The notes beneath the pieces are model-generated. The model had not been told where the DNA came from. It worked only from the letters and a program-made list of their open reading frames with translations, and did not search any database. A stretch of 64,000 nt of DNA from an uncultured delta proteobacterium (GTDB lineage Bacteria > Desulfobacterota > Binatia > Binatales > Binataceae): assembly GCA_963808235.1 (NCBI GenBank), contig CAWEEQ010000004.1:1600001-1664000 (forward strand), written 5' to 3'. This document shows, piece after piece, positions 1-16,496 of the stretch; the first letter of the stretch is position 1, and the number at the start of each line of letters is the position of its first letter. Both the position numbers and the translations under genes were made by a program.

Positions 1-191
1 GCGATATACGCGTACACCCGCTCGAAGTTGTTCTCGTACAGCTCCGCGAATCGACTCCGATCGCGCTGCGCCGCCTCGATCAACTCCCGCTCCGCACCGT
101 CGGGCGCGCACTTCGCACTCCGCACGGACGTCTTCAACGCCACGGATTCCGATTCTCGCCGCTCGGGCTTCAATGCGGGATCTCCAGACAC
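1..191 (-). CDS. ECF-type RNA polymerase sigma factor, 5' part (runs off window edge)
   Basis: Own translation from GTG at 191: ...ERELIEAAQRDRSRFAELYENNFERVYAYIA, typical sigma70 region 1.2/2 of ECF factors; GAGG RBS just upstream. Confidence 0.7.
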   Translation of the reverse strand, partial: MSGDPALKPERRESESVALKTSVRSAKCAPDGAERELIEAAQRDRSRFAELYENNFERVYAYI

Positions 192-366
192 ACTCGCCTC
201 TACCTACATGAAACCCCGCGCCCCCGGAAAGGTTACGGTCTGATCCTGGTCATAGCCTCTCCCGCAGCTGTCGGCGATGTCGCCAGCCGCAAACCGGGAG
301 AGGCCATCCGGCGACATCTATGTTGTCGGACGGGTGAGGGCGCTGGATAAGGCGTTGTACTGAGAT

Positions 367-942
367 CTAGCTGGTCGAGCCTTTATCGTTGGGCAGATTC
401 ACGAACACCGCCGCCGTGACCACCGTGGTCCACAGCCCGTCGCGATCGCCCATCGCCGACTGCGTGATATTCCGCGTCTGCACGATCTTGTCCGACAGCT
501 TCCACACGTCCTTGCGTTCGTCGTAACTCACGTTGGGATCGAAATCGACGCCGAGCGCCGTCGCCAGCATCGTCGCCGCGAGGTCCTCCGCGTAGTCGCC
601 CGCCTTCTCGTCGGTCTGCCCGAAGCTCTTGTGCTCGCTGAGGTAGCCGTATTGATCGCGCTCGGCCGGGATCGCCAGGCCGACCGACGCCGCGACCAGC
701 CGATGCGGTTCGTTGGTCGAGTTGTCGTACATCACCGCATAGACGATCTGCCCGGGAGTCAGCGTCTTGAGCCCGTCCTGAATCGAGATCACTTTGCATC
801 CCGGCGGGAAGATCGAGCTGACCCGCACCAGGTTGAACTCCGCGATTCTCGCGTCGCGCAGCGCCAGCTCGAACGAGGTGAGTTTCTCGCGATGCTTCCC
901 GACTCCCTTGGTCAGAAAAATTGCCTTCCCTATCGGCCCCAT
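367..942 (-). CDS. Pyruvoyl-dependent arginine decarboxylase
   Basis: [25 protein letters not shown] with the Ser-Ser autocleavage site; YGYLSEH; PvlArgDC (PdaD/AaxB) family. Confidence 0.9.
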
Positions 943-1117
943 CTATTGTCCCCGCAAATCGCGCCCCCGGCGCATTTTGATCACTGTGAAAAGTGAAAAG
1001 GTGAAAATCAACAATAGACAGGATTTCAGTTCCACGAATCAAGCGCCACCCCCGCAAGACCGGCAAATGTGACGGCCCCCGGATCCCGACCCCACGCGCA
1101 CCAATCCCCCGAAACGA

Positions 1118-1147
1118 CCGCGCCGCCGAATTCCTTCGGCGGCGCGG
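1118..1147 (-). terminator. GC hairpin downstream of secreted protein copy 1
   Basis: CCGCGCCGCCGAA-TTCC-TTCGGCGGCGCGG, 13-bp stem followed by TCGTTTC on minus strand. Confidence 0.65.
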
Positions 1148-1168
1148 CAAACTGGCAAGCTTCAGTCT

Positions 1169-1480
1169 TTACCGATTGTCGTCGTCACTGTGGCGATCAC
1201 CATAGTTATGATTCGCCACGTCGTTGTTCAGATCGTTCTTCTGATCCTGCATGTCGGCACGATGCGCCTGGATTTCTTCTTTCTCACGAGACGCCGCGCC
1301 GTACCTTCCTTGATCCATGTCCTCGCGCTTCTCCTGCTTGTCGTGCTGGATAGCGGCGTGCTCCTGGTCGATCGACTGAGCATCGTGGTTCATGTCCTGA
1401 TAGCTCTGCGCATATGCCATCGGAAGCGCCATTAGCGTCCCCAATGCGCCTGCTGCCAACGTGAGTACAAGTCGCTTCAT
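1169..1480 (-). CDS. Small secreted helical D/E/R/H-rich protein (paralog 1)
   Basis: MKRLVLTLAAGALGTLMALPMAYA signal peptide, ATG at 1480; strongly similar to 1771..2091. Confidence 0.8.
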   Translation of the reverse strand: MKRLVLTLAAGALGTLMALPMAYAQSYQDMNHDAQSIDQEHAAIQHDKQEKREDMDQGRYGAASREKEEIQAHRADMQDQKNDLNNDVANHNYGDRHSDDDNR

Positions 1481-1605
1481 AATAGGAGGCCCTCCTGGCC
1501 AGTTTGTCGCAATGTAGCCGTGGGGCAGTGAAAAGCGAGGATCACGGCATTTGATCGATTGCCATTTGCCAGAGGCACCGTGCCAGTGGCGCTTCACCTA
1601 ATTCA

Positions 1606-1621
1606 TGCAGCGGCTATGCCA
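1606..1621 (-). promoter_or_regulatory. sigma54 (-24/-12) promoter of paralog 1
   Basis: Minus strand TGGCATAGCCGCTGCA = GG-N10-GC; conserved upstream of both paralogs. Confidence 0.65.
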
Positions 1622-1713
1622 CAAACAAATGCAGCGCCTGCGGGATAGACTTTCCGGCGTACAGTCAGCGCAGAGTCGGCGATCGGTAAAATGTTTCGCC
1701 GCGCCCGAAACGA

Positions 1714-1743
1714 CCGCGCCGCCGAATTACTTCGGCGGCGCGG
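1714..1743 (-). terminator. GC hairpin downstream of secreted protein copy 2
   Basis: Same stem as 1118..1147 with loop TTAC. Confidence 0.65.
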
Positions 1744-1770
1744 ATCGTTAACTTGCTAACCCTTCAGCTC

Positions 1771-2091
1771 TTAGTCGTCGCTGTCGTGATTGCGCCATCG
1801 GTCACCGTAGTAACGATTCGCCATGTCGTTGTTCAGATCATCCTTCGTGGCCCGCTTGTCCTCACGACGCTGCTCGATTTCCGCCTGCTCACGAGCCGCC
1901 GCGCCGTATCGCCCTTGCTCCATGTCCTCGCGCTGCTCTTCGCGATCATGCTGGATACCGGCGTTATCGTGCTGAATCCTCGCCGCGTCGCCGTTCATGT
2001 CCTCCCAGCTCTGCGCATGTGCGATCGGAATCACCAGCAGGGATCCCAATGCGCCTGCTGCCAACGTGACTAGTAGTCGCTTCATAAACAC
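1771..2091 (-). CDS. Small secreted helical D/E/R-rich protein (paralog 2)
   Basis: MKRLLVTLAAGALGSLLVIPIAHA signal peptide; shares REDMxQGRYGAA and DLNND with paralog 1; AGGAG RBS. Confidence 0.8.
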   Translation of the reverse strand: MFMKRLLVTLAAGALGSLLVIPIAHAQSWEDMNGDAARIQHDNAGIQHDREEQREDMEQGRYGAAAREQAEIEQRREDKRATKDDLNNDMANRYYGDRWRNHDSDD

Positions 2092-2187
2092 GATCTCCTT
2101 GCATGAGTTATCGCAAGTTCACGAGAGCACCCGTGAGTGCCAGGTAAATTTTGCGATTGGTGCCACGCAGCACCTACTCTCTGTGGA

Positions 2188-2203
2188 TGCAGACCCTATG
2201 CCA
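2188..2203 (-). promoter_or_regulatory. sigma54 (-24/-12) promoter of paralog 2
   Basis: Minus strand TGGCATAGGGTCTGCA = GG-N10-GC. Confidence 0.65.
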
Positions 2204-2674
2204 GAAATAATCGCGCGATTGCGAAATAAAAGTTTCGCAGCCGGATCCCCGCGACAAGTAAAAAGTAAAAAAGTAAATGTTTCGCCGCACCCACCCAAAA
2301 TCTTACCGCGATGTTATTACCCCTCTCCCTATCAGGAAATCTCTGCACAACGGGCCGCAGCTTCTTCCCCTCTCCCGATGGGAGAGGATTGAAGGCGAGG
2401 GACCTTATCCAGCGCGCGCTTCGCGCGATTCAAAGATTCTGCTCGGCTCCGAAACCTCGCGGAGGTTACGCAAAGCTCTCCCTCAGGAGAGACCAACGAA
2501 GCAGACAAAAATCTAGGCAGCGCATTATTTTCGAAGGACCAATCTCCCAGACGGCCGAGAGCAAAAGACCGTCCTCGGGATTTTGCGATTGATACTGGGT
2601 GCAGGGGTCACCCCTGCCGCCAGCCGCGCAGGCGTGACTAAGATTCTTATTCTCCCTCCTACCGCTTCTCCCCC

Positions 2675-3601
2675 CTACTTCGCCCCCTTCTCCCCCGCCG
2701 GCGCGATTGCGCCCTCCGTCTCCCCCGATCTCCTCCGCGCATTCCCCCGCTCTTTGCGCCGCGCGTACTTCCGCTTCCCTTCCGCCACCCGCGCATCTTC
2801 CATCGCACCATATTTGACGGGGTCGAATGGAATCAGCGGCTTCAAGCCGGCTCTCATACTGACCTTCGGGAACAGCGCCCGGTTCCGCTCGATCTCCCCA
2901 AGCGCCCAGTCGCACCAGCGGATATTCTCTTCCATCCAGTCGATTCCGCGCTTGAGCGTGAACCACGTAAACATCGTGTTCACATCGCGATATGCGTCAT
3001 CGCCCGCGAAATAGTTCTGCTCCATTTCCCGATACCGCTTCAGATAGAGCTGCCACGAGAGCCGCTCTTCGGCGATTACCTCGCGCGCACCGTCGGCCCC
3101 CAGATGACCTAGAAACCGGCACCGCAAAAGTGGCGGATGCTTCAGTCTCAACCCTTCGAATGGACCCTCGAGCCATTCGACCAGCAGCCGCTCGCCCGAG
3201 GGCGTGATCGTGTACACCTGCTTGTTGGGCCGCTTGCGCTGCGTGACCCTGCGCCTGTGGATCACCCCGAATTCTTCCATCCGTTCCAGGGTCGAGTAGA
3301 TCTGCGTGGGATGCGCATGCCAGTAATGCGCCATCGAAATATCGAACAGCTTGACCAGGTCGTATCCCGACACCCCCGGCGTCTCCGCGATAAGCCCGAG
3401 CAACGCCAAATCCAGCGTCGCCGTCCTCCCCGGCGACCGCGTAAACCGCGGAACTTCGTCGTCTTCGATATCCTCGATCTCCTCAAACGAAACCCGCCGC
3501 GGAACAACGGAATCCGCCTCACGCCCCCGCCCAATTCTTTCCTTCTTCACGACACCTAACTTTATCCGCGCCGAACCGAGGTTTCCATCGACTCCCAACA
3601 A
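2675..3601 (-). CDS. PadR family transcriptional regulator (true start probably further downstream)
   Basis: LALLGLI...SGYDL...YWHAHPTQIYSTLERME...KQVYTITPSGERLLVEWL PadR wHTH plus helical C-terminal domain. Confidence 0.85.
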   Translation of the reverse strand: MLGVDGNLGSARIKLGVVKKERIGRGREADSVVPRRVSFEEIEDIEDDEVPRFTRSPGRTATLDLALLGLIAETPGVSGYDLVKLFDISMAHYWHAHPTQIYSTLERMEEFGVIHRRRVTQRKRPNKQVYTITPSGERLLVEWLEGPFEGLRLKHPPLLRCRFLGHLGADGAREVIAEERLSWQLYLKRYREMEQNYFAGDDAYRDVNTMFTWFTLKRGIDWMEENIRWCDWALGEIERNRALFPKVSMRAGLKPLIPFDPVKYGAMEDARVAEGKRKYARRKERGNARRRSGETEGAIAPAGEKGAK

Positions 3602-3623
3602 CCCGCGCTGCCCCTTATTTTTG

Positions 3624-4348
3624 TGTCATTGCCAGAGCCGCAGCCCAAGAATCCCGAATCCAATGACTGCAATCTTTGTGTCATTCTAGAGCGAAGCGAA
3701 AGCCTGCCCTGAGCGAAGCCGAACGGGAATCCCGATTCCTTTTCCGAGATCGTCCCCCTCCGTCATCCTGAACGCCGCCTATGTCATCCTGACCGAAGCC
3801 AGCAACGCGGCGCAGTGGAACTGGCTTCTGGCCTCCGGACAGCTTCGCGCCAGCGAAGCCGGTTCCGGTTTCGAGTCGCCGCGTCCAGTCGTGCACCCTG
3901 AGTATTCGCGAAGAGCCTGCCCCGAGTATTCCCGAGGGGGCGAAGCGATGCTCCTTGTTCTTCTTCAGCTCCTCATCAGAAATTCCCTCCCACCAGTTAG
4001 GATGTCGCGTTCCGCGCCACTTCTTAGCCAAGAGCTAGTGGCACGGGCGTCCCTGCCCGTGATCGATCGCGTTCCGCGCCACTTGTTATTCGCCTCTCCC
4101 GCTTAGTCGCGGGAGAGGCCGCGCCTTCGGCGCGGGTGAGGGTGCTTTTTCACGGGAGAGGCGGCCGGTCGCTTCCGCGGTCGGTAGGTGAGGGTGCAGC
4201 CGACCCAAGCAACCCGCCCAACAACGCACACGCCATCCTATCTCTGTCATTCTAGAGCGCAGCGAAAGCCTGCCCTGAGCGAAGCCGAACGGGAATCCCG
4301 GATCTTTATTCCATGATCTCGGCGCTACGCGCCTGCTAGAAGTTTGAG
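3624..4348. repeat. Cluster of REP-like palindromic repeats (TGTCAT/CGTCAT-tagged and CCTCTCCC/GGGAGAGG types), left flank of island
   Basis: 56-bp direct repeat 3679..3734 / 4245..4300 with 1 mismatch; related starts at 3624, 3761, 3782; CCTCTCCCGC..GCGGGAGAGG hairpin at ~4093-4143. Confidence 0.75.
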
Positions 4349-4368
4349 TGAAGATTAAGCACAGCTCA

Positions 4369-7041
4369 CTAGGGTTCACGCAATTTGAGTTTTAGTTGCG
4401 GGCTGTGCGAATCGGGAGACTCAGAACGCGTAAACTCGGAGCGCAATGAGATGACTCCGCGAATCCTGGATCTCTCTCTAACGAGCTGCACACCGAGTTC
4501 AAATTCCTTTGCAGTGCCTTCGCTCAGAGGCATCTCGAATATATAGGATTGACGGCCGCTCTCGTCGAGTTGGTTCACCGGCAATTCGAACGTGATCAAC
4601 TTTTCCACTTCGTGGTCGGATGGGTACCGCAGATCAGGGCGACGATACAACTGATCGCTGGGAAGCTGTTGAGGGTTCGAAATAACAGCGGCAGGCTGAC
4701 CACGCGTCTTTAAATCTAGCCTGCTAGATTTACCCGAGAGCTGCTCCTTCCGAAGAGAGTGCAGAGTTGCGGTTTTTACGAGCATCAATCTCTTGGTAAA
4801 CCCGCCCCGGCGTCGTAACTTCTTTCTGCGCTCAACTTCTAGCTCTGACACAGAAGAGTCTATTACTTTGATCAAGGCCAAGACGACCTCTTGCAGATCC
4901 GCCAGTTCAGAGACGACATCTGCGCCAGATCGAGCGTCTAGTGCCTCATACGCTTCCTCAACGAGCTTTCGTCTAAGAGCGAGGACTAGCGCTTCGCCTT
5001 TCAGCTCAATACTCTCTGCTCTTTCGCCGCGGCCTTCGATCTGCCTTGGAATCAGGTCGCGCACAATCTTATTATACTCGACAACGTCCTCGTCCACCCC
5101 AAACAGGTCAACACATTCCACGTCGGCTCCTAGTCGTTGTAGGATGTAGTAGGCGTGCGACAAGATGCCACCAGCGAGTTCGATTACAAATCTCTTTTCC
5201 GATGCGAGCTTCCCGAGCTCTTCAGCAAAACTGCGATTTCTGATTAGTTCAGGATCGACCGGTTCGACTATAACTCGTTCGATCCTTTTTCCACTGTATA
5301 GTGCGTTCTTGAAGTCCGTCCAGTCTTTACTAGTTCCAATTCTATGGTCGCCCGCAGAGCGATATTTGTGCCGAGGCGCCGCGGCCTTGAGGACTCCAGA
5401 TAATTCTGACTTCTGGTGATACCAAGGCAAGATAGCATGCGGGCTTATCTCGCGCTGATTGTCCAAGAACCACATGACACTCACTGGGTGCTGTTCTCTC
5501 TCGGCAATTCGCCTTGTTGTTTCAGCGATCTCGAAGAGCCAGTCTTCCTTCGTTACGCTTTTACCCCAGTCGTACGGAGGCTTTGTAAAATGTGAACGCC
5601 ATTTGCCATCCTCATCAGATGCAATGAAAAGGCCTTTATATCGTAAGCGCTTCCTATATGTATATCTTCTCTTTCGAAGAGACCGGCTGAAATTGATCTT
5701 AGTCTCCTTCGTGTCGATTTCGAATGTGTCGTGGGAAAACCAATAGAGACCTTCAGGAAGACCCCATAGCGCCTCTATTCTGACAATGCGATTACCGGGC
5801 TCCGCGCGTGCCCACGCAGAGGCGACCGACGGGATGAAGTGATGCGCGATCAAGCACACGCCTGAAGTCCAGAGGTCATTCTGCTGAATCTTCCAGCTAA
5901 AGTCTCCGAGAAGCCATTCCGTTGCTTGACTGGAAGACCTAAGATCGTCACTTCGCGGCAACATCTCTCGCTTGTTCTGAGGGATCGCCTCGCCGTCAGT
6001 ACGTATTACCAGAGGCCGTTTTGTAAGCGCTTCCAAATCACCGAGACATGCAGAAGGCACAACTCCCTCGCGGATAGATTTCAGAACCGCCGCATCGTCG
6101 AGCACATAAAAGACCGGCATCGCGTAACCGAGACTCCTGTACATCTTTGCATTGTGCAACTTTCTGTAGCGATCATAGTCACGCGAGTTAGCTTTTCTGA
6201 ACACCCGAAAAAGATCGCCCTCGATCTCAGGTATTCTGCCTTGCAGAAGCGATTTTGGGGCGGTTCCACGACGGTGTTCCTCGGCGTCAGCTTGAACGAT
6301 CATAATGGTGCGGCCGTCCCATACCCATTCGAAGTGAATTCGCGAGGCTAAGGGCGCCGCCCACAACGCCACGCTCTTCAACGAGTTACTGATCCCTGTC
6401 TCAGAGCTGCATGTCAGCAACGAAATTGACCTATTTCCGGCATCTCGCCAGTTTCTTACGGCGATTCGAGCAGTATCTCCGGGCTGAACAGATTCTGGCT
6501 CGATCTCCACGATCCAGTCCCGTCCCTCGTGACTCAATCGCCGGACATTTGAGAGGTGTCCCTTTCGAACCGTAGTGACCGCCTCTTGAATGACCCAGTG
6601 CAATTGCTCTGCATCATTTCGACTTAGATGAGATAGCATCTTCCGAATCTCATCCGCCACGTCGCGGGGCGCGCATCGAGTCGAATCCAAGCGACCTCGT
6701 TGATCCAGCGTCTCTTCAGTTCCGCTAGATCGTACAAACACTTCTTTCTCGGCCCAAAGATCCAACTTTCGCAAACAGTCGTCTAACCATTCTTCAAAAG
6801 ATGAATCGTTTAGCTGCGCCTGCATCGAAGAAGCCGCGACCACGAAGAAACGCGGCACCCAACGTTGGGGCAGGCAGCAAAGGCCATATGCTTTCCAGCC
6901 TATCTGCTTTACGGAAATCTCAGCTGCGTCAAGGAGGATCGGACCCTCTCGCGAGAGACAAAGTACAGAACAAATCGGAACTAGCATGCGGCGAACTCGC
7001 CGCCGCCGTTGCTTCTTATCCTCCTTCTCTTTAGACGCCAC
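4369..7041 (-). CDS. Fusion: two PEP-synthase/PPDK-type ATP-grasp modules + phospho-His swivel domain + MazG-like (COG4997-type) NTP pyrophosphohydrolase
   Basis: Module 1 GWKAYGL..VPRFFVV, VRSS, FEWVWDG..IVQA; module 2 PLVIRTD, IEALWGLPEGL; GGILSHA; YNKIVRDLIP..KLVEEAYE..ELADLQEV..RRGGF. Confidence 0.75.
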   Translation of the reverse strand: MASKEKEDKKQRRRRVRRMLVPICSVLCLSREGPILLDAAEISVKQIGWKAYGLCCLPQRWVPRFFVVAASSMQAQLNDSSFEEWLDDCLRKLDLWAEKEVFVRSSGTEETLDQRGRLDSTRCAPRDVADEIRKMLSHLSRNDAEQLHWVIQEAVTTVRKGHLSNVRRLSHEGRDWIVEIEPESVQPGDTARIAVRNWRDAGNRSISLLTCSSETGISNSLKSVALWAAPLASRIHFEWVWDGRTIMIVQADAEEHRRGTAPKSLLQGRIPEIEGDLFRVFRKANSRDYDRYRKLHNAKMYRSLGYAMPVFYVLDDAAVLKSIREGVVPSACLGDLEALTKRPLVIRTDGEAIPQNKREMLPRSDDLRSSSQATEWLLGDFSWKIQQNDLWTSGVCLIAHHFIPSVASAWARAEPGNRIVRIEALWGLPEGLYWFSHDTFEIDTKETKINFSRSLRKRRYTYRKRLRYKGLFIASDEDGKWRSHFTKPPYDWGKSVTKEDWLFEIAETTRRIAEREQHPVSVMWFLDNQREISPHAILPWYHQKSELSGVLKAAAPRHKYRSAGDHRIGTSKDWTDFKNALYSGKRIERVIVEPVDPELIRNRSFAEELGKLASEKRFVIELAGGILSHAYYILQRLGADVECVDLFGVDEDVVEYNKIVRDLIPRQIEGRGERAESIELKGEALVLALRRKLVEEAYEALDARSGADVVSELADLQEVVLALIKVIDSSVSELEVERRKKLRRRGGFTKRLMLVKTATLHSLRKEQLSGKSSRLDLKTRGQPAAVISNPQQLPSDQLYRRPDLRYPSDHEVEKLITFELPVNQLDESGRQSYIFEMPLSEGTAKEFELGVQLVRERSRIRGVISLRSEFTRSESPDSHSPQLKLKLREP

Positions 7042-7077
7042 AGGTTATTTTAGCAACCGCGCTTGCTCGGGAATCTG

Positions 7078-7908
7078 TCAGACCCACTTCGGGATGCGAA
7101 GGAGAGACGAGAAGTAGAGGATCTCGGCACCTTTATGAGCCGAGCTAGCCGTATGCATGAGCGCAAGATGTTTACAGCGTATGCCTCTGTACAGTTTTCT
7201 AATTTCATTCACGTCGTCGTAAGACACAATCCAAGGACAGGCGAGCTTTTCAACGCTCTTTCTAACTGCGACGTGATCTTCAGGCTCGTAGTCGTTGAGA
7301 TACAAGTGCCTTCCTGGACGGTAGTAGGGAGGGTCAAGATAGACTAAGGTTTTCCGCGACGAGCGACAATCTTTGAGAACATCGAGAGCATCTCGTTTAG
7401 AAATGAATATCCGGTTCTTAGAGGAGGAAATGCGCGATATCCGCCGCGCCAGTTCGGTTCGGTTAAATCGAGCATCCAGCTTCCACGTTCCTTTTTGCTC
7501 TTTCCCCCCTATCATACCTCCGTTGAGAATCCCGGAATGACTTGTGCGGTTCAAAAAGAACTTCGCGAATCCAAGTGCAAGCGTACCCGACCGTGTACCT
7601 TCCGCGTAGATAGCCTTTTGTCTGTACCACTCGTCTGGTGTGACAGATACCTCTCGGATTAGTTCCAAGAGTTCACGCGTTTTCGTTAATACACTTCGCC
7701 AGAAAGCGTAGACCGCGGAATCGAGATCGTTGAGGTGAATCTCGGTTACGAGGCCGTCGAACAGCAGGCTAAGAGCCAGACTGGCGCCTCCCGCATACGG
7801 TTCTATGTAGATCGGTTCGTCTAGGCGGTTAATTTCGATCACACGTCGGAGGAATGGTGCAATTCTCCACTTACCTCCAGGGTAGCGAAGAGGAGAGGCG
7901 CTTCTCAC
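7078..7908 (-). CDS. DNA adenine methyltransferase, Dam/D12 class
   Basis: LRYPGGK, EPYAGGAS (SAM binding), YLDPPY (catalytic); GTG start overlaps upstream stop (GTGA). Confidence 0.92.
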   Translation of the reverse strand: MRSASPLRYPGGKWRIAPFLRRVIEINRLDEPIYIEPYAGGASLALSLLFDGLVTEIHLNDLDSAVYAFWRSVLTKTRELLELIREVSVTPDEWYRQKAIYAEGTRSGTLALGFAKFFLNRTSHSGILNGGMIGGKEQKGTWKLDARFNRTELARRISRISSSKNRIFISKRDALDVLKDCRSSRKTLVYLDPPYYRPGRHLYLNDYEPEDHVAVRKSVEKLACPWIVSYDDVNEIRKLYRGIRCKHLALMHTASSAHKGAEILYFSSLLRIPKWV

Positions 7909-8531
7909 AGGCTGTCAGCACCGTCCGCGCTAGGTGGCTTAGGTTGTTCGCCTGCTTTTCCCTTTCCACTCATCGTACCGAATAGAATGTCAGCTATCTC
8001 GGTAAGCTTAGCGATGGCGCTATCAGAGAAGTAACCGACCAAAAAAGAGACGGCTACGATCACCGAACAGGATCTAGTCGCGGTCGCGTCGAAAACCCGA
8101 AACAAGCCAGAGGAAATCAGAGCTATCATCGCGAAAGCGAGTCCTCCCGAGATGTGTGGTGTAAAGAAACGCCACAACCTCCGATCGAGATGCCACCATT
8201 GTTTTGCTACGGAATGATAGAGCCACTTGAGATCGAATAGCGTTCCCCCAAGAGTTCCGCCTAGCCAGGCCAAGCCGTACTTTAGGACGGAGCTATACCT
8301 CTGCTGACTGAGGCCCATCCACTTGTTCGGGAGTTCAAGCCAGAGAGCCAGCATAAGAAGAGGTGCAGCAACGAGGAGAACTCCCAAGTATGCAGATTCG
8401 AGCAAGATACCGCGGCGAGCTTCTGGGTCTGAGTACTTGGACTTCCAGTCGAGAGGATTTCGTTTGTCAGTCAGGTCGGCGGGCGCGAAACCAAGGACCT
8501 GCTCCGACTCCGGTGTGTCCGATTTTTTCAG
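7905..8531 (-). CDS. Uncharacterised membrane protein, ~4 TM (possible CTG start at 8531; TTG at 8405 otherwise)
   Basis: Hydrophobic segments, GGTLGGTLF glycine motif, FLVGYFSD; frame stays open to 8531, overlapping the HIT gene stop. Confidence 0.7.
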   Translation of the reverse strand: MKKSDTPESEQVLGFAPADLTDKRNPLDWKSKYSDPEARRGILLESAYLGVLLVAAPLLMLALWLELPNKWMGLSQQRYSSVLKYGLAWLGGTLGGTLFDLKWLYHSVAKQWWHLDRRLWRFFTPHISGGLAFAMIALISSGLFRVFDATATRSCSVIVAVSFLVGYFSDSAIAKLTEIADILFGTMSGKGKAGEQPKPPSADGADSL

Positions 8532-9184
8532 GCCGCAACTCGCTTAAACTCGCCCAACGCATCGAGGTTGGCAGCCCATGTTCTGGCCTGATGGATGGTT
8601 GCCGATACGTTAGATAACTGTGGATGTTCGCGCCAGCTGAATTGATCAGGCAACCCGATTTGTGAAGCGATCGCGCGCCTGAACAACTGACTACCAAACT
8701 CACCGTGGCTAGCAATGCGTCCTAATCCGATCGGTTGTTCAAGATACAGGTAGTCATCGCCCCTGCTATGAGCAGTCTGGCATTCGGCAAGAGAGGCGGG
8801 AGACCAACGGACATCTTTCGGCAAGAATGGCTGAACGGCAGGAAGCAGATCGAACTTCAACGCGACAATGTGCAAGTGCGCATGATCCACTCCACAGCCT
8901 ATCAAGGAATTAGCCTTGCTTGGACCGTGTTCGAAGGCGCAAACCGAGGAGTAGGTTCGCGTCATCTGCGAGACCAGCGCATTCTTTACGTGTTTCGCCT
9001 CGGCGATCAGATCGCTGTCTAACGCACCCAACGAAACAGCATGCTTCTTCGGCAAAACGAGCAACCAACTTTCAACGAGCGCCCCGAGTGACGGTAACAC
9101 AAGAAAATTGGCTGACTCGAAGAGCGGCTCGTTCCAAAACTCGGGCTGTTTCGAGGAAAGATCAATACATATTTTGCATGCCAT
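8528..9184 (-). CDS. HIT (histidine triad) family nucleotide hydrolase
   Basis: N-terminal CKIC, LPSLGALV..WLLVLPKKH, FEHG, GCGVDHAHLH triad; strong GGAGGAAGGAGG RBS. Confidence 0.85.
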   Translation of the reverse strand: MACKICIDLSSKQPEFWNEPLFESANFLVLPSLGALVESWLLVLPKKHAVSLGALDSDLIAEAKHVKNALVSQMTRTYSSVCAFEHGPSKANSLIGCGVDHAHLHIVALKFDLLPAVQPFLPKDVRWSPASLAECQTAHSRGDDYLYLEQPIGLGRIASHGEFGSQLFRRAIASQIGLPDQFSWREHPQLSNVSATIHQARTWAANLDALGEFKRVAA

Positions 9185-9215
9185 TGTTTTCGTCCTCCTT
9201 CCTCCTGCCGACCTG

Positions 9216-9243
9216 ATTTTAGGACAGAACTACCTATTTTCAA
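9216..9243 (-). promoter_or_regulatory. Putative sigma70 promoter of the four-gene operon
   Basis: Minus strand TTGAAA-N16-TAAAAT; ACAAAA-N6-TTTTGT inverted repeat at 9259..9276 just upstream. Confidence 0.5.
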
Positions 9244-9349
9244 AGGCCCCTGCGGACAACAAAATTTATGTTTTGTCTAGGGGAGCCCTTTAGGCGGGAG
9301 CGGCCGATTGGCGCTGGGCAACGGGCGTGATTCTCGCCCGTCGGCCCGC

Positions 9350-10120
9350 ACCCTCACCTACCCCCGTCGCTCTGCGACGAGGCCTCCTCTCCCGTAACCT
9401 AACGGGCGAGGTGACAAACCGAAGCCCGGAATGCGGCGCAACAGACAATCGCGCCGGAAAATGTCCCCCACCCTCACCCTCCCCCGACGAACGTGGGAGG
9501 GAATTTGACGAGGGCCCAAATAAAAAGGAGCATCGCTTCGCGGAGATCCTTCGACTTCGCTCAGGATGACAGAAGAAGGCGATCCGCATGGAGGAGAAAC
9601 TGTGTGGGCGAGGGAACCAGCACTCTCCGCCCCTAAACTTCTAACAGGCGCGCCGCGCCGCATCCGATTTTTTTCTCCCACCAGAGGAAGCGCGAAACCC
9701 ACTATGGGTTTCGCATGTCCGGGTCCCGCATCTCTTCTCTTGGCCTCCCCCCAGTCACACTTCAGGCGCGCAGCGCCGCATCCTGTCTTTGTTTAGACGA
9801 ACGGGAAGGTGTGAAAAACGAAACCCGTACGGGGTTTCGTGATTGCTTCGTCCTGCGCGCGCGATACTCGATGGGTGTGTCAAGGTTAACCTTGACACAC
9901 ACGCTCCACTTCTGACCCGTGCGTAGGGCCCGAATCGTGTCTCGTATGGACAGACGGGAAGCAGTGAAAAACGAAAGCAGCGGCCATCGCTCCACGCACC
10001 CGAGGTTCGGCACCCAAGCACGAAACACGGCCGCTTGTTGAAAGTTCTAACAGGCGCAGCGCCGCATCCTGTTTTTGTTTAGACGCAAGGGGAAGCGTGA
10101 AACCTGCGTGAGGTTTCACA
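9350..10120. repeat. Cluster of REP/MITE-like repeats, right flank of island
   Basis: CCCTCACC-type hairpins 9350-9413 and 9470-9502; TGTCATCCTGAGCGAAG copy on minus strand 9541-9571; three copies of the CAGGCGC..GCCGCATCC..GAAACC..GGTTTC element (9634, 9759, 10041). Confidence 0.75.
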
Positions 10121-10166
10121 TATTCTCTCCCGCTTCCCTTTTGCGCACGCGCGATGCGCGCGACGG

Positions 10167-11537
10167 TCACGCGGCGGCGGGCACCCAGTTGCCGTGGAAG
10201 CCCCAGGGCACTCGATGCTGCAATTTCACGCGTGCTACTGGCTTGCGCGCGAAGTCTTGCGCGTCGAGGACGACCATCTCGCTGCGATTCTGATGCTCGT
10301 CGTACCAGACTGCCAGGATCCATCCGTCGTCTTCGGCGGATTTTGCGGCGCGCGGCACGAACACCGGCTCTCCGGGCATAAAGCCTGCCCCCAGCGCGTG
10401 CGTTTCGAGCTTGTTGGTCTGATAGTCGCGCTTCAGGATCGCATTGAAGGGAGCGTCGGTGTCGAGCGACGAATGTTTCCCGCCGACGAAGTATCCGTAG
10501 CGATGCTTCCTTCCGGCGAGTCGTTCGTCGAGCCGCGGAAACTCGTTGCTGACCTCGTCAATCTGGTTCTGCTTGAGCGAGCCGTCGCGCAAGTTCAGGT
10601 TCCATCGCCACGGCAGCGGCGGATTTCCGCCAAACGTGTTGCCGGTCATGTCGAGCGCCGCCATCCGGCATCCATCGACAATCAGCGATCCGTTTTCCTC
10701 GTACGCATTGAGAAAATGAAACACGTAGAACGCTTCGTCCTGGAACCATTTCACCTCACCGGTCGCGCGATTCATCGCGCCGATTTTGGTCCCATGCTGC
10801 GGCTCCCACATCACGAGCGGCTTTCCCTGCGATGCGTTCTCGATACGGAACACTGACGGACAGACAAAAAAGATCGCGTAGTTATCGGTCGCGATAAAAT
10901 CATGCATCATCGCCGGCAGTCCGGTGTCGATCGCGCGCGACTCGATCATCGTTCCGTCGCGCCCGGCTCGATACCACGTCACGTACGGCGGCATCGCCGA
11001 GTACCCGAAGAACAGAATGTCGCCGGTCGCCGCATCGAACTTCGGATGCGCCGTCATGGGCCCGTTCAGTTTCCCGCCGAAGTCGAACAGGCCGATCGTC
11101 TCGAGCGTCTCGGGCTTCAGCTCATGCGGCAGCCCCGCCTCCCACAGCGCGAGCATCCGATTCGCATAGCCGATGATGTTGGTATTCGCCGCGTTCTTGA
11201 ACGGCGGGATGTTCGGCGGCAACTCGCGCGGCTGCTCGATCAACCCGCCGTAAAGCGCCCGCCCCACTTTCATCTCCGCCTTCAACCCGTCCGTCCGCAC
11301 GTAGCGATTGCGATACGCCGCGCGCCCGTCGCGCAGCATGAACGCATGCACCATCCCGTCCCCGTCGAACCAGTGATACCGCCCCGGCGGATTGAAATGC
11401 GGATTCGGCCCGATTCGATACAGCGCACCGTTGAGTTCACGCGGCAGCTCGCCCTCGATCTCGAGATCATAGGCGTCGCCCTCTTCGCGCCACGGCGCAT
11501 AGTTTCCGCTCAGGAATGGGTTGGTCGAGTCGTACAT
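10167..11537 (-). CDS. Carotenoid oxygenase / lignostilbene dioxygenase family (RPE65-like)
   Basis: GPNP..HWFDGDGMVH, TAHPK, MMHDF, VFHFLNAYE, EPVFVPR, GFHGNW; all four Fe-binding His present. Confidence 0.93.
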   Translation of the reverse strand: MYDSTNPFLSGNYAPWREEGDAYDLEIEGELPRELNGALYRIGPNPHFNPPGRYHWFDGDGMVHAFMLRDGRAAYRNRYVRTDGLKAEMKVGRALYGGLIEQPRELPPNIPPFKNAANTNIIGYANRMLALWEAGLPHELKPETLETIGLFDFGGKLNGPMTAHPKFDAATGDILFFGYSAMPPYVTWYRAGRDGTMIESRAIDTGLPAMMHDFIATDNYAIFFVCPSVFRIENASQGKPLVMWEPQHGTKIGAMNRATGEVKWFQDEAFYVFHFLNAYEENGSLIVDGCRMAALDMTGNTFGGNPPLPWRWNLNLRDGSLKQNQIDEVSNEFPRLDERLAGRKHRYGYFVGGKHSSLDTDAPFNAILKRDYQTNKLETHALGAGFMPGEPVFVPRAAKSAEDDGWILAVWYDEHQNRSEMVVLDAQDFARKPVARVKLQHRVPWGFHGNWVPAAA

Positions 11538-11671
11538 TGAAAAACCTCCGGGGTCGCTATATAGTAGAATACACTATTATTGTAATACTTGACTAGACGA
11601 GTCAACCGGTGCCGGTGCGCAATCGGAACGCTGCATTGCGAACTTTCTGACGGCGACTTACGATCTTCGTC

Positions 11672-12205
11672 ATGCTCGCCGATGCGCTTTGGTTCGGGGC
11701 CGGATTGTTTGCGTGGACGTTTGTCGAGTACCTGATTCATGGGGTGCTCGGGCATGCGCATCGGACGGTCGTCAGCCGGATGCACTGGGTGCATCATAGC
11801 GATCCTAGTGCGGTGTTTGCACTGGGGGCATGGATTCCGGTGACAGTGGTGCTGGTCGGCGGGTGGGTGATTTGGGGGGCGGCGCCATCGGTGATCTTGT
11901 TCGGTGGGGTGGCGGCGGGATTTGCCGGTTACGAGTTGATTCATTACCGGATTCATTTTGCGCGGCCGGCTTGCGCGCTGGAAGAGCGGCTGCGGGCGCG
12001 GCATCTGGCGCATCATTTTGCACAGCCCGATGCGATCTTCGGGGTGACCTCGCGGTTTTGGGATGTGGTATTCGGGACCGAGCCTGAAGCGTCGCGCATG
12101 CGGGAGCTGGCGGAGGCTGGTTCCGCGATCGCGCCGCACGAAGGTGCGAGCAATCTTGACCGGATGATTGGCCGGGTGATCGGCCGGAGCATCCCAGCCC
12201 GTTGA
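11672..12205 (+). CDS. Fatty acid hydroxylase / sterol desaturase family membrane protein
   Basis: EYLIHG..H, HWVHH, YELIHYRIH, HLAHH His boxes; FGVTSRFWD. Confidence 0.85.
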   Translation: MLADALWFGAGLFAWTFVEYLIHGVLGHAHRTVVSRMHWVHHSDPSAVFALGAWIPVTVVLVGGWVIWGAAPSVILFGGVAAGFAGYELIHYRIHFARPACALEERLRARHLAHHFAQPDAIFGVTSRFWDVVFGTEPEASRMRELAEAGSAIAPHEGASNLDRMIGRVIGRSIPAR

Positions 12206-12208
12206 CAC

Positions 12209-12227
12209 ATAGCTCAAGTCGAGCTAT
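12209..12227. promoter_or_regulatory. Palindromic operator candidate next to a TTGACA -35 box upstream of padR
   Basis: ATAGCTC-N5-GAGCTAT directly after TTGACA (12202..12207). Confidence 0.5.
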
Positions 12228-12240
12228 TGGCTTGATAGGT

Positions 12241-12936
12241 ATGACTCAGGGATCGATCAGGACGCGGACGGCGCCGCTGTTCGCGGGCGGAGCGGCGTTC
12301 GAGATCGAGCAGACGCCGCCGCGGATGGATGTGAAGTTTCCGATCCTGGGGTTTTTGAAGGAGGCGGAAGCGACCGGCTACGATCTGAAGAATCGTTTTC
12401 AGGATCCGGTCGGGTTCTTTTACCGGGTCAGTGACGGATCGATCTATCCGGCGCTCAAGAAGCTTGCGCGCGACGGGCTGGTTACGCTGCGGAGCGAACG
12501 CAACGGGCGCCGGACGCGGAAGGTATATGCAATCACGGCCAGGGGCCGGGAGCATTTTGGACGCATGCTGCGCGAGCCGGCGCAGCCCCTGTTCGTCTTC
12601 GACGAATCGCAGGTGAAGATCTATTTCGCGGACCAGGAACCGGAGATTGCGCTTGAGCATATGGAGCGCTCGCGCCGCGACGATGAAATGCGGACCGCGA
12701 TCCTGGCGCGGATGGTCGGCGATATGCGCCGCGTCGGGGTGAGCCCGGTGCGAATAGTCACGGCCGAACTCGGACGAGCTATCACGAAGGCGAAGGCGCG
12801 CGTGCTGGCCAGGCTTTGCGCGCAATTGAAACGCGAACTACAAGGGAAGCGCCGCGCGAAATCGCCGCTCAAACCGCGCGCTATGGCGACCGTCGGTGTG
12901 GCGGGGAAAATCAATCGGAGCCGGCTCACAGGATAA
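12241..12936 (+). CDS. PadR family transcriptional regulator (alternative start 12325)
   Basis: ILGFL..TGYDLK..GSIYPALKKL..RKVYAITARG. Confidence 0.88.
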   Translation: MTQGSIRTRTAPLFAGGAAFEIEQTPPRMDVKFPILGFLKEAEATGYDLKNRFQDPVGFFYRVSDGSIYPALKKLARDGLVTLRSERNGRRTRKVYAITARGREHFGRMLREPAQPLFVFDESQVKIYFADQEPEIALEHMERSRRDDEMRTAILARMVGDMRRVGVSPVRIVTAELGRAITKAKARVLARLCAQLKRELQGKRRAKSPLKPRAMATVGVAGKINRSRLTG

Positions 12937-12942
12937 AGGGTT

Positions 12943-13668
<726 letters not shown>

Positions 13669-13702
13669 CGGGAGAGAAGAGGAGAAAGAGAATAGAGGAA
13701 AC

Positions 13703-13783
13703 CGAAACCTCACGCAGGTTTCAGACTTCCCGTGGCGGGAGAAAAAGATCAGGATGCGGCGCGGAGCGCCGGTTAGAAGTTTT
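13703..13783 (-). repeat. Dispersed ~80-bp MITE/REPIN-like element
   Basis: Minus strand AAACTTCTAACCGGCGC..GCCGCATCC..GGGAAG..GAAACCTGCGTGAGGTTTC; hairpin identical to the copy at 10041..10120. Confidence 0.7.
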
Positions 13784-13897
13784 ATGAGTGAGGAGAGATC
13801 TTGCCTCTCCCGCGGGTGGCGATTGTCGCCAGCTGCATGCCGGGAGAGGCGATTTGGAAAGGACTTGGCGCGCTGAGCAGTAGGTAGTGACTGAGTC

Positions 13898-15037
13898 ATG
13901 AAGTACTTTGCGTTGGTCTTTAAGAATTTGCTGCGGAGTAAGCGGCGCACCTTTTTGACGGTGGTTTCGATTGCGGTTTCGCTGTTTATTTTTTCGGCGC
14001 TGGTCAGTATGCCTACCGTGGCCAATCAGATACTTGGCGATAGCGTGTCGTCGACCCGGATTGCCACTCACAACAAGGCCGGCCTGGCCTATTCTATTCC
14101 GGTTGCTTACAAGCAGAAGATCGTGATCGTGCCGCATGTCGAAGCGGCGATGGCGCAGAGCTGGTTCGGCGGAATTCTGCATGATGTGAACGATCAGTTT
14201 CCGAACTTCGCGGTCGATCACGAAGTCGTGGACAAGGTTTATTCCGATTGGAATATCTCGCCGGAGTCGGTCGCGCAGTTCAAAAAGATTCGCACCGCGT
14301 GCCTGGTCGGGAGCGAGACGATGAAGCGTTTCAATCTTCATGTCGGCCAGCAGATCGTGCTCAAGGGTGGAATCTATCCGTTCAACGTCACGCTCAATAT
14401 CGTCGGGACGATCGGAGGCAAGGCGCCGCCGAATTTCCTGATTTTCCGCCGCGACTACCTGGAAGAGGCGGCCGGACGGCCGGGCTTCGTCGATGTGATC
14501 TGGGTCAAAGTCGACACGGCGAGCAACGTGCCGCAGGTGATCGCCGCTATAGATGAAGGTTTCGCCAACTCGTCGGCGGAGACGGTGTCGGAATCGGAAT
14601 CGGCGTTTATCGGCGGCTTTCTGCAGATGTATCGGACCTTCTTCAGGATGGCGGAAATTCTGGGCTTCATAGTCGTGATGACTATAGGACTGGTTGCGGC
14701 GAACACGGCGGCGATGTCGATTCGCGAGCGGCGCGGCGAAATCGCGGTGATGAGATCGATTGGGTTCAGGTCGCGGACGATTCTGGCGCTGCTGCTTTCG
14801 GAGTCGCTGCTAATAGGACTTATCGGCGGCTTGATTGGATGCGGCGCGGCGTTTTTCGTGCTCAAGATTTTTTCGATTGGCAATGTCGGCGGGCCGCTCG
14901 GAACGATCAGCATGCCGCCGGTGGTGCTGGCGGAGACGCTGGTGATGGCGGCGTTGATTGGGCTGTTCAGCGCGCTGGTGCCGGCGAGTTCGGCTGCGCG
15001 CAGGAATATTGTGGATGCGTTGAGAACGGTCGCGTGA
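13898..15037 (+). CDS. ABC transporter permease (MacB/FtsX family), copy 1
   Basis: KNLLRSKRRTFLT; periplasmic domain; SIRERRGEIAVMRSIGF. Confidence 0.93.
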   Translation: MKYFALVFKNLLRSKRRTFLTVVSIAVSLFIFSALVSMPTVANQILGDSVSSTRIATHNKAGLAYSIPVAYKQKIVIVPHVEAAMAQSWFGGILHDVNDQFPNFAVDHEVVDKVYSDWNISPESVAQFKKIRTACLVGSETMKRFNLHVGQQIVLKGGIYPFNVTLNIVGTIGGKAPPNFLIFRRDYLEEAAGRPGFVDVIWVKVDTASNVPQVIAAIDEGFANSSAETVSESESAFIGGFLQMYRTFFRMAEILGFIVVMTIGLVAANTAAMSIRERRGEIAVMRSIGFRSRTILALLLSESLLIGLIGGLIGCGAAFFVLKIFSIGNVGGPLGTISMPPVVLAETLVMAALIGLFSALVPASSAARRNIVDALRTVA

Positions 15038-15042
15038 GTCGA

Positions 15043-15109
15043 GATGGCATTGAGCTCGATGTTTGCGCCCTCACCCGACGCGGCGTCGGCCTCTCCCGAA
15101 GGGAGAGGC
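15043..15109. repeat. 67-bp intergenic direct repeat (REP-like), copy 1
   Basis: Identical to 16417..16483. Confidence 0.9.
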
Positions 15110-15154
15110 AGGATCGGACTGGAATCGGAAGCGGCAGAGGTTAGTGAGTAAGTC

Positions 15155-16294
15155 GTGAAGTACTTTGCGCTGGTGTTCAAGAATTTGATGCGGAGTAAGC
15201 GGCGGACCTTTTTGACCGTGGTTTCGATTGCGGTGTCGCTGTTTATTTTTTCGGCGCTGGTCAGCATCCCGACTGTGGCTAACGAGATACTCGGTGATAC
15301 TGCGTCGTCGACCCGGATTGCGACGCATAACAAGGCCGGGCTCAGTTACAATATCCCGATTGCATACAAGCAGCGGGTCGCTACGACTCCGCATGTCGAG
15401 GCGGTGGTCGCGGAGAGCTGGTTTGGCGGGGTCTATCACGAGGTTTACGATCAGTTTCCCAACCTGGCGGTCGATTCGGAGCAGATCGATATAATGTGGC
15501 CGGATTGGGGAATCAGCAAAGAGCAGTTCGATCAGTTCAAGAAAATTCGCACCGCGTGCCTGGTGGGCGGCGGAACGATGAAGCGCTTCAACCTGCATCT
15601 GGGGCAGCAGATTCAGCTCAAAGGTACCGCGTATCCGTTCAACGTGACGCTGACGATCGTCGGCAGGATCGGCGGCAAGGCGCCGCCCGACTTCCTGTTG
15701 TTCCGGCGCGACTACCTTGAAGAGGCGGCCGGGCGGCCCGGTTTCGTGGGCAACATGTGGGTCCGGGTCGACAAGCCGGAGAATGTGCCCCAGGTGATCG
15801 CGGCGATTGACGAAGGCTTCGCCAACTCGTCCTACGAAACGCTGTCGGAATCCGAAGCGGCGTTTCTCGGCAACTTCATGCAGATGTATCGGACCTTCTT
15901 CAAGATCGCCGAGCTGCTGGGTTTTATCGTGGTGCTGACGATCGGACTGGTCGCGGCGAATACGGCGGCGATGTCGATTCGAGAGCGGCGCGGCGAAATC
16001 GCGGTGATGAGATCGATCGGATTCAGGGCGCGCACGATTCTCGCGCTGCTGCTCGCGGAGTCACTGCTGATTGGGCTTAGCGGCGGGCTTATCGGATGCG
16101 GGACGGCATTTGTCGTGCTCAAGGTTTTTGCGGTCGGCAATCTGGGCGGACCGCTCGGATCGATCAGCATGCCGCCGCTGGTGCTGGTCGAGGCGCTGGT
16201 CGTGGCGGTGTTGATTGGGATCTTCAGCGCGCTGGTGCCGGCGAGTTCGGCGGCGCGGAGGAATATTGTGGATGCGTTGAGGACGGTGGCTTAG
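15155..16294 (+). CDS. ABC transporter permease (MacB/FtsX family), copy 2
   Basis: 379 aa, colinear close paralog of 13898..15037. Confidence 0.93.
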   Translation: MKYFALVFKNLMRSKRRTFLTVVSIAVSLFIFSALVSIPTVANEILGDTASSTRIATHNKAGLSYNIPIAYKQRVATTPHVEAVVAESWFGGVYHEVYDQFPNLAVDSEQIDIMWPDWGISKEQFDQFKKIRTACLVGGGTMKRFNLHLGQQIQLKGTAYPFNVTLTIVGRIGGKAPPDFLLFRRDYLEEAAGRPGFVGNMWVRVDKPENVPQVIAAIDEGFANSSYETLSESEAAFLGNFMQMYRTFFKIAELLGFIVVLTIGLVAANTAAMSIRERRGEIAVMRSIGFRARTILALLLAESLLIGLSGGLIGCGTAFVVLKVFAVGNLGGPLGSISMPPLVLVEALVVAVLIGIFSALVPASSAARRNIVDALRTVA

Positions 16295-16483: not shown

Positions 16484-16496
16484 GTAGGAATTAGAG

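Follow-up and report, generated by a model that had tools for sequence, protein, structure and literature searches.

What does a cassette do in which a HIT-superfamily protein, a small membrane protein, a DNA adenine methylase and a very large multidomain enzyme are encoded one after the other? Such a cassette occupies positions 4369-9184, on the minus strand, of a 64,000-nucleotide stretch of DNA (hereafter the window) from an uncultured delta proteobacterium of the Binataceae (assembly GCA_963808235.1, contig CAWEEQ010000004.1, positions 1,600,001 to 1,664,000). An earlier note on this DNA took it for a candidate nucleotide-based defence operon. The comparisons described below show that the unit was inserted into its present site and that its genes travel together in many bacteria; the large enzyme has a domain architecture of which no member has been characterised. 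We give about an even chance to the reading that the cassette is a horizontally acquired, methylation-linked conflict or defence system, combining nucleotide chemistry with a membrane effector and putatively directed against phages or mobile DNA. The four genes, which run head to tail, are as follows.

8528..9184, minus strand: HIT-superfamily protein (HIT), 218 aa, ATG start
7905..8531, minus strand: small membrane protein (TM), 208 aa, probable CTG start overlapping the HIT stop
7078..7908, minus strand: D12-class N6-adenine DNA methyltransferase (MT), 276 aa, GTG start, DPPY motif
4369..7041, minus strand: large multidomain enzyme (BIG), 890 aa, GTG start

Gene layout and insertion site

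The arrangement given in the earlier note, four coupled minus-strand genes with CTGA and GTGA overlaps and a 36-bp gap, is present in the window. The GTG of the MT gene overlaps the TGA of the TM gene as GTGA, and 36 nt separate the MT stop from the BIG start. Where, then, does the TM gene begin? The program that listed open reading frames (ORFs) placed its start at TTG 8405, leaving a 122-nt gap after the HIT gene. The reading frame is open from 8543, and the sole start-like codon upstream is CTG 8531, lying over the HIT stop. Because 37 TM homologues share a conserved N-terminal tail that is encoded upstream of TTG 8405 (D22 and R24 are invariant, W29 nearly so), the TTG is too late and CTG 8531 is the best start; the homologues begin this tail mostly with ATG and in a few cases with GTG or TTG. 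Judged by sequence conservation, the TM gene is thus probably 8531..7905, with a CTG start and 208 aa, and the CTGA overlap with the HIT stop is backed by the tail motif.

The ATG of the HIT gene is preceded by GGAGGAAGGAGG, so the strong ribosome-binding site claimed for the first gene is there. As to the promoter that the operon was said to have, a consensus match lies upstream of the HIT gene; the region is no richer in such sites than shuffled sequence (3 found against 3.2 expected), and the site counts as a consensus match only.

9216..9243, minus strand: promoter-like site upstream of the first gene, TTGAAA, 16-nt spacer, TAAAAT, 10/12 consensus matches

Is the cassette native to this genome? 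When window positions 1-16000 were compared by blastn with four same-genus genomes (L060-L063), homology ended at 3426/3427, at a PadR gene, and restarted at 10177, at an RPE65 gene. The spacing between these two genes is 97-108 nt in the four relatives and 6,749 nt in the window. Since PadR and RPE65 lie only about 100 bp apart in the relatives, 3428-10176 is a 6.7-kb insertion. The RPE65 region had been searched in five near-complete same-genus genomes; an RPE65 orthologue (about 80% nucleotide identity) was present in four of them, all four with the empty site, and the fifth gave weak matches only. Among 61 related genomes, 43 of which are at least 90% complete, BIG was found in one, the window's own (0/36 other same-genus genomes and 0/24 others of the same class). 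As the earlier note had said, the genes are AT-richer than their surroundings, with a G+C fraction of 0.50-0.54 in 4501-9000 against 0.57-0.64 in the flanks on both sides. The empty site in 4/4 relatives and the lower G+C bear out that the unit is foreign and self-contained. The island comprises the following parts.

3428..10176, no strand: inserted island, delimited by blastn of window 1-16000 against the four same-genus genomes, which have the empty site
3430..4368, no strand: left non-coding flank, rich in short repeats, sharing units with the right flank in inverted orientation
9185..10176, no strand: right non-coding flank, rich in short repeats that form clusters

Besides the four genes, the island thus holds only these two non-coding flanks of 0.9-1.0 kb each, and there is no integrase or transposase among its genes. 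The repeat clusters that were said to bracket the genes do so, filling 3430-4368 and 9185-10176. They were considered as the ends of an element or transposon, and this was ruled out: the same units, some 25-75 nt long and in both orientations, recur elsewhere in the window, near 13.7, 19.1 and 49.7 kb, which makes the repeats a genome-wide intergenic family and not element ends. They are like repetitive extragenic palindromes (REP) in look and may mark insertion-prone intergenic sites.

A second stretch of the window, 96-2820, is also extra relative to the four same-genus genomes, in which the matching points are about 270 bp apart. This 2.7-kb stretch contains ORFs at 383-1150 (minus), 1169-1597 (minus) and 1997-2392 (plus), with no Pfam or PADLOC match.

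Co-inheritance of the genes across bacteria

Are the four genes also found together elsewhere? When 185,579 species genomes, one per species, were scanned with a sequence pattern, 52 BIG loci came to light; searching plasmids yielded another, in Caulobacter rhizosphaerae, making 53 in all. Of these, 43 could be assessed because they contain the N-terminal end of BIG together with 1.5 kb or more of upstream sequence (L024 and L039 nearly duplicate each other). Their gene orders are:

HIT-TM-MT-BIG: 19 loci
MT-HIT-TM-BIG: 10 loci
HIT-TM-BIG-MT: 3 loci, in two of which MT lies on the opposite strand
HIT-TM-BIG without a Dam-like MT: 7 loci
TM-MT-BIG: 1 locus
BIG-HIT: 2 loci
BIG alone: 1 locus

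HIT and TM come before BIG in 39 of the 43 loci, which span more than 10 phyla; the synteny search that the earlier note called for therefore finds the HIT-TM-BIG order kept. Beyond these genes the flanks have nothing in common: neighbouring ORFs form clusters that span 5 loci at most. All four proteins have strong homologues along with this conserved synteny, which places the association beyond chance. A Dam-like MT is present in 33 of the 43 loci, in three different positions, and can be replaced: an N6_N4 methylase lies directly upstream in L016, and an annotated S-adenosylmethionine-dependent methylase directly upstream on the Caulobacter plasmid. When identities to the window proteins are compared between partners, the Spearman coefficients are 0.86 for BIG and MT (n=27), 0.68 for BIG and HIT (n=36) and 0.65 for BIG and TM (n=35), values that are descriptive and not independent tests because the sequences are related. 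Hence the MT, which had been called an orphan, is not one in the usual sense; it co-diverges with BIG. One of the seven loci without a Dam-like MT, L044, looks degraded. More generally, L032, L033, L038 and L044 look frameshifted and L030 and L037 look 5'-truncated; the frameshifts may be assembly errors and were not used as evidence.

The hosts include Acidobacteriota, Desulfobacterota-type lineages, Nitrospira, Beta- and Gammaproteobacteria, Clostridia, Actinomycetota, Myxococcota, Dormibacterota, Vulcanimicrobiota and the Caulobacter carrying the plasmid. Several carriers are culturable (Paraburkholderia sediminicola, P. bannensis, Achromobacter aestuarii and Catenovulum agarivorans). Two distant variants depart from the usual gene content. 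In the actinobacterial locus L045 (4279-13059), BIG, a 695-aa AAA ATPase and HIT lie in a row, the ATPase replacing TM, and the other strand encodes a large GNAT protein along with an ASCH-like PDC-M11B and a DprA/SLOG protein. On the Caulobacter plasmid (L053:4774-17263) a methylase, HIT, TM and BIG are followed by a fusion of GNAT and PIN (PIN_3) domains, with an nSTAND3 NTPase adjoining.

What surrounds the cassettes? In 40 loci we looked at the two closest ORFs on either side, counting only those of 110 aa or more, 146 proteins in total. Among these neighbours, 12 of the 40 loci have a gene for an integrase, transposase, resolvase, RepA or terminase, and 12 have genes of restriction-modification (R-M), abortive infection (Abi) or toxin-antitoxin type; 22 loci have neighbours of mobile or defence type. 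The defence-type neighbours are type IIG R-M enzymes, AbiEii, HEPN_AbiV, an Hhe-like helicase-nuclease, HipA, RES and PIN proteins. At E<=1e-10, PADLOC models match 13 of 145 neighbour proteins, in 12 loci, and the full-length matches include the type IIG enzyme, the Hhe/PDC-S37 protein, AbiEii and PDC-S01. Two of the PADLOC matches were rejected as artefacts of generic domains, DrmC on a transposase helix-turn-helix (L026) and MzaA on a sigma-70 factor (L033). The cassette is associated with mobile DNA.

Could it then be a module of toxin-antitoxin type that serves mobile elements for addiction or stabilisation? The membrane protein would be the toxin, the upstream and better-translated HIT enzyme (alone or with BIG) would counteract it, and the module would persist by post-segregational killing with no role in phage defence. 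A HIT gene with a strong ribosome-binding site followed by an overlapping TM gene with a weak start is the layout that such a pair might have, and the integrases, transposases, resolvases or RepA near 12 of 40 loci, the sporadic distribution and the copy on a plasmid are in line with it. Set against this are the absence of any mobility gene from the island in the window and the size of the apparatus: an 890-aa enzyme with three conserved catalytic centres, and a methylase besides, far exceed what an addiction pair needs. We therefore hold this explanation to be quite unlikely.

Elsewhere in the window, 12202-19020 encodes a PadR regulator, then an ABC ATPase, three FtsX/MacB-type permeases and an HlyD-type adaptor. 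PADLOC gives spurious matches there and farther on, the ABC ATPase to mad3/mad8 and a sigma-54 activator (25613-27031) to RtcR.

Features of the four proteins

The BIG protein of the window has no match in Pfam, PADLOC, NCBIfam or PHROG. It does have relatives: 458 homologues were found, the best 120 of which are 713-916 aa long with 46-100% identity, and an exhaustive profile search (E<=1e-30) among 1.84 billion proteins gave 796 representatives after clustering at 50%. Domain assignment drew on an AlphaFold2 model (mean pLDDT 79.6, pTM 0.69) compared with solved structures. From N- to C-terminus the domains are:

6268..6987, minus strand: BIG 19-258, ATP-grasp module 1 with VRSSGxxE (VIA-align to PPDK 2dik, Z 15.2)
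5398..6207, minus strand: BIG 279-548, ATP-grasp module 2 (rifampin phosphotransferase, RPH, 5hv1, Z 16.4, 279-548 aligned to 3-316)
5104..5364, minus strand: BIG 560-646, small alpha/beta domain, candidate phospho-histidine carrier (GGILSH; G624, L627 and H629 invariant)
4792..5079, minus strand: BIG 655-750, MazG/PRA-PH-like helical bundle (PRA-PH 1yvw, Z 8.6, root-mean-square deviation 3.1, 69 residues aligned)
4432..4659, minus strand: BIG ~795-870, five-stranded beta domain (strands 799-868 predicted, pLDDT ~60-84)

The alignment of module 1 to PPDK 2dik pairs BIG 32-258 with chain residues 2-343 (204 residues, root-mean-square deviation 3.4). Module 2 is also matched by HpeI (9goj, Z 16.1), by the isolated ATP domain of RPH (5hv6_A, Z 15.7) and, in Foldseek, by 5hv2 (3.2e-9). 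Both modules therefore have a PPDK_N-type ATP-grasp fold on structural grounds (Z 15-20); at the sequence level Pfam PPDK_N is detected in 4 of 17 BIG relatives, above its cutoff in one (P0224, 29.4 bits against 27). The earlier note was right that the protein contains ATP-grasp, but structure alignment gives two modules and not one.

The likeness continues beyond the ATP-grasp fold. Alignments of full-length RPH (5hv2, Z 19.7, chain 3-841, and 5hv3) extend to BIG 645/646 and chain residues 841/842, and take in 311-313 residues as against 247 for the ATP domain alone; phosphoenolpyruvate (PEP) synthase 2ols (Z 15.9) aligns over BIG 279-651 with its residues 4-497. PEP synthase, PPDK and RPH transfer the beta,gamma-phosphates of ATP to a histidine on a mobile domain and from there to an acceptor in a third domain. 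BIG resembles these enzymes and HpeI in its ATP-grasp fold, behind which comes a small domain whose GG..SH histidine is invariant. That histidine, H629, is a candidate for the phospho-histidine role, to judge by the motif it stands in, its lack of variation, the order of the domains and the alignment of structures. BIG differs from them in its tandem ATP-grasp modules, in an additional C-terminal beta domain and in what stands at the acceptor position, which is neither a TIM barrel nor a rifampin-binding domain but a MazG/PRA-PH bundle, followed by the beta domain.

The bundle is a four-helix one and carries the EExxE and ExxD metal-binding motifs of the MazG/PRA-PH group. Further structural matches are Mycobacterium tuberculosis MazG (7yh5, Z 6.8, 32% identity) and the MazG-like protein of phage S-2L (7ody, Z 6.5), with several MazG chains in the range Z 6.5-7.4. 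Pfam detects PRA-PH in 16, MazG-like in 10 and MazG in 3 of 35 BIG relatives, and none of them in the window's own segment at E<=0.05. MazG/PRA-PH domains bind nucleoside triphosphates with metal ions. BIG is like the pyrophosphohydrolases of this group in retaining the helical bundle and its acidic metal-binding residues, and differs in that the bundle is an internal domain of about 100 residues in an 890-aa enzyme; it may be a nucleotide-binding acceptor site and not a free hydrolase. Across 59 BIG sequences R104, S105, E110, E238, Q250, H629, K658, R661 and D662 are invariant, as are the acidic residues of the bundle, E695, E696, E699, E712 and D715, and because these key residues do not vary the catalytic centres appear to be under selection. 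The C-terminal beta domain, which lies outside the fold searches, is of unassigned fold; Foldseek of the C-terminal third against PDB gave nothing at E<=1e-3, ESM Atlas gave no usable match to BIG 780-890, and a profile of BIG 556-890 searched against PDB sequences matched M. tuberculosis MazG alone (E 0.06). A subgroup of the BIG family (P0143, P0147, P0152 and about 20 others) is longer, at 950-1024 aa, and shows two matched stretches; its longer C-terminal part belongs to no Pfam family.

The HIT protein matches Pfam HIT, DcpS_C and CwfJ_C_1 at E of about 1e-3, all under cutoff (17.9 bits against 21.5 for PF01230), and 26 of 39 family members match Pfam HIT and 26 of 39 CwfJ_C_1. The family profile matches solved HIT proteins at about 1e-7. 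Among PDB sequences it matches human CWF19L1 best (2.1e-8), over profile positions 22-195, a span that takes in the HIT half as well as the C-terminal half. In 39 sequences the triad H101, H103, H105 (HxHxH) is invariant, as are C97, F84, E85, H86 and G87; C3 and C6, which form an N-terminal CxxC, are nearly so. The triad and the profile matches place the protein in the HIT superfamily, whose enzymes cleave or transfer at the nucleotide alpha-phosphate, including at P-N bonds. In eukaryotes, CWF19L1 is part of the spliceosome and debranching machinery. The cassette protein shares with CwfJ/CWF19L1-type proteins the HxHxH triad and the match over both halves; unlike CWF19L1, it is bacterial, has the N-terminal CxxC and an intact triad, and is encoded in an operon with a membrane protein. 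It has a PHROG match that is not traceable to any phage context.

Is the cassette simply an accessory to nucleotide metabolism? Public databases label BIG a house-cleaning nucleoside triphosphate (NTP) pyrophosphatase. On such an account the genes would, for example, salvage or destroy N6-methylated or otherwise abnormal nucleotides derived from methylated DNA, the membrane protein being a transporter or anchor, or, by analogy with RPH, would confer resistance to a nucleotide-like antibiotic. The label itself speaks for this, and so do the classic nucleotide hydrolases among HIT and MazG enzymes and the closest folds of BIG, those of a drug kinase (RPH) and of the small-molecule dikinases HpeI and PEP synthase. 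A house-cleaning enzyme would hardly be expected, though, to go unfound in 60 of 61 related genomes, to turn up at only 52 loci among the 185,579 species genomes of the pattern-based scan, to lie in inserted DNA of different composition, or to be linked to a DNA methylase and not to salvage genes. We consider a house-cleaning or resistance role improbable.

The membrane protein has a cytoplasmic-looking N-terminal tail and at least three hydrophobic segments, with hydropathy peaks at 47-65, 129-147 and 155-173 and a glycine-rich fourth candidate. A basic loop is conserved (K102, D116, R117, W120 and R121 are invariant), as is a GYFSD motif followed by a helix. There was no match in Pfam, PADLOC or NCBIfam, and ESM Atlas returned unnamed clusters only; a remote match to phrog_22917 (1.5e-8) could not be traced to a phage context. 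Prediction of a complex between TM residues 1-48, HIT and BIG 556-890 scored 0.00, which is no evidence either way.

The methylase matches PF02086 over profile positions 1-242 of 253 (3.7e-17, 63.3 bits against a cutoff of 22) and has the DPPY motif, as expected for a D12-class N6-adenine enzyme; its score with TIGR00571 dam (57.9 bits) is under the cutoff of 114.85, so that it is D12 but not Dam proper. With the methylase placed, the domain calls of the earlier note (HIT, membrane protein, D12 adenine methylase, and a fusion of ATP-grasp, histidine and MazG domains) are upheld, and the motifs it listed, HAHLH, DPPY, GGILSH and the MazG acidic residues, were all found; those of the HIT and large proteins are invariant within their families. 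No endonuclease gene of the sort that a classical type II R-M system would have was recognised beside the MT: the three partner proteins have no nuclease match in PADLOC, Pfam or NCBIfam, the BIG beta domain lying outside the fold searches.

Does the cassette correspond to a system already named? In PADLOC v2.0.0, BIG, TM and HIT match no family at E<=0.01. The methylase alone matches, to PD-Lambda-5_B (8.5e-109) and almost as well to MTase_II (2.9e-95), from which it follows that the cassette is not PD-lambda-5, BREX, DISARM or MADS, and the earlier note's failure to recognise the combination agrees with this. Full-text literature searches, whose coverage stops short of subscription journals and supplements, likewise turned up no account of the combination. 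Likeness to the Escherichia coli system PD-lambda-5 is confined to the B component, no cassette protein matching PD-Lambda-5_A, so that A and B are not both present. PD-lambda-5 is described by Vassallo et al. (2022) as a compacted prophage R-M plus Abi system (PMC9519451). The cassette resembles BREX, DISARM and MADS in that a DNA methylase is co-inherited with non-nuclease or poorly understood enzymes; it shares with them the methylase class only (there is no Pgl, Brx, Drm or mad match) and at 4 genes is much smaller. BREX combines a methylase with non-nuclease enzymes, including phosphotransfer enzymes. MADS is described as a methylase-linked multi-gene defence system (PMC13662399). By its sequence the cassette appears to be of this general kind, a methylase-linked mobile conflict system, with an uncharacterised enzyme architecture.

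The methylase also raises the possibility that DNA itself is what is modified. By analogy with DarTG, which has writer-and-eraser logic on DNA, BIG or HIT might modify foreign DNA with a phosphate or a nucleotide, adenine N6 and DNA ends being conceivable sites, with the methylase shielding host sites and HIT reversing stray marks. The MT is tightly linked to the cassette, mobile within it, replaceable by other methylases and co-diverges with BIG, all of which would suit such a scheme, and with no nuclease in the cassette any restriction must act without cutting. Hint and aprataxin are HIT enzymes that cleave P-N and nucleotidyl-DNA bonds; the cysteine cluster (C3, C6, C97) and CwfJ-like second domain of the cassette HIT, and the GNAT protein that accompanies the cassette in two distant variants, point the same way. 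Yet no DNA-binding domain was recognised, the MazG/PRA-PH fold on the acceptor side binds free nucleotides in its known members, the membrane protein is left without a role, and four intact-looking cassettes lack a methylase. A DarTG-like modification system thus seems unlikely.

Predicted function and its implications

We return to the reading of the cassette as a methylation-linked conflict or defence system. Three of its features suggest how this might work. With a MazG pocket at the place where related dikinases usually have their acceptor domain, the simplest reading is ATP-driven (pyro)phosphorylation, or controlled breakdown, of a nucleotide. That the HIT gene stands first, has a strong ribosome-binding site and is translationally coupled to a membrane-protein gene with a weak start fits an enzyme that restrains a membrane effector. 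Finally, a methylase that is persistent and replaceable points to DNA methylation as the mark of self.

Put together, the methylase would mark the host's own DNA with N6-methyladenine. An ATP-grasp site of BIG would charge His629 with phosphate or pyrophosphate from ATP, and the histidine domain would carry this to a nucleotide in the MazG-like pocket. Once unmethylated foreign DNA or an infection is sensed, a phosphorylated nucleotide might be made, or a nucleotide destroyed, to serve as signal or poison. The HIT/CwfJ-like enzyme, translated first and coupled to the membrane protein, would remove the nucleotide and so keep the system off, and the small membrane protein, as effector, would halt the infected cell. 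The exact succession of signal, eraser and effector in this scheme is put forward with less confidence than the defence reading itself, at below an even chance, and the write/sense/erase/kill circuit of the earlier note is likewise conjectural. A more pointed version is tentative and, as it stands, rather doubtful: the tandem-ATP-grasp, histidine-relay dikinase would (pyro)phosphorylate the nucleotide held by the MazG-like pocket or would make an adenine-N6 phosphoramidate, the product being a nucleotide signal or a DNA mark that HIT erases and the membrane protein reads out. In the phosphoramidate variant, adenine N6 would be the very atom that the cassette methylase blocks.

Several observations weigh against a defence role or parts of it. 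Many loci lie among housekeeping genes. The co-location with defence islands that the earlier note expected has not been demonstrated as an enrichment: PADLOC matches 13 of 145 neighbours (9%) and 3 of 42 ordinary window ORFs (7%, all of them generic), no difference, although this control is small (42 ORFs) and comes from one genome only. No nuclease or recognised sensor domain is present in the cassette, the BIG beta domain again being outside the fold searches. Pfam PEP-utilizers (PF00391), the family expected of a phospho-histidine domain of this type, was detected in 0 of 35 BIG family members at E<=0.05. L040, L041, L042 and L048 are intact-looking cassettes with no recognisable methylase among the nearest ORFs, and L028 has a frameshifted MT beside intact partners; since some cassettes still look intact without it, the methylase is not strictly required. 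Lastly, no match turned up when BIG, TM and HIT were compared with phage records by tblastn, and the best 80 IMG/VR loci contained only stand-alone MazG-like genes matching BIG ~631-800. This absence of the cassette from the phage records and from those loci may be counted against it too, yet it is uninformative as to defence.

Since culturable carriers exist, the idea is directly testable. If the cassette is indeed a defence system, a compact, nuclease-free module of four genes would join the small group of methylase-linked systems of unclear mechanism, such as BREX. To our knowledge, a PEP-synthase-type histidine relay fused to a MazG pocket and paired with a HIT enzyme related to the eukaryotic CwfJ domains is chemistry that has not been seen in immunity. 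Should the histidine-relay reading be true, phosphotransfer of the PEP-synthase type would be found in an immune role for the first time, and a new enzyme class would be defined. Whatever the role of the cassette, the BIG family, with its 796 representatives, is an uncharacterised architecture that currently stands under the label of a house-cleaning pyrophosphatase.

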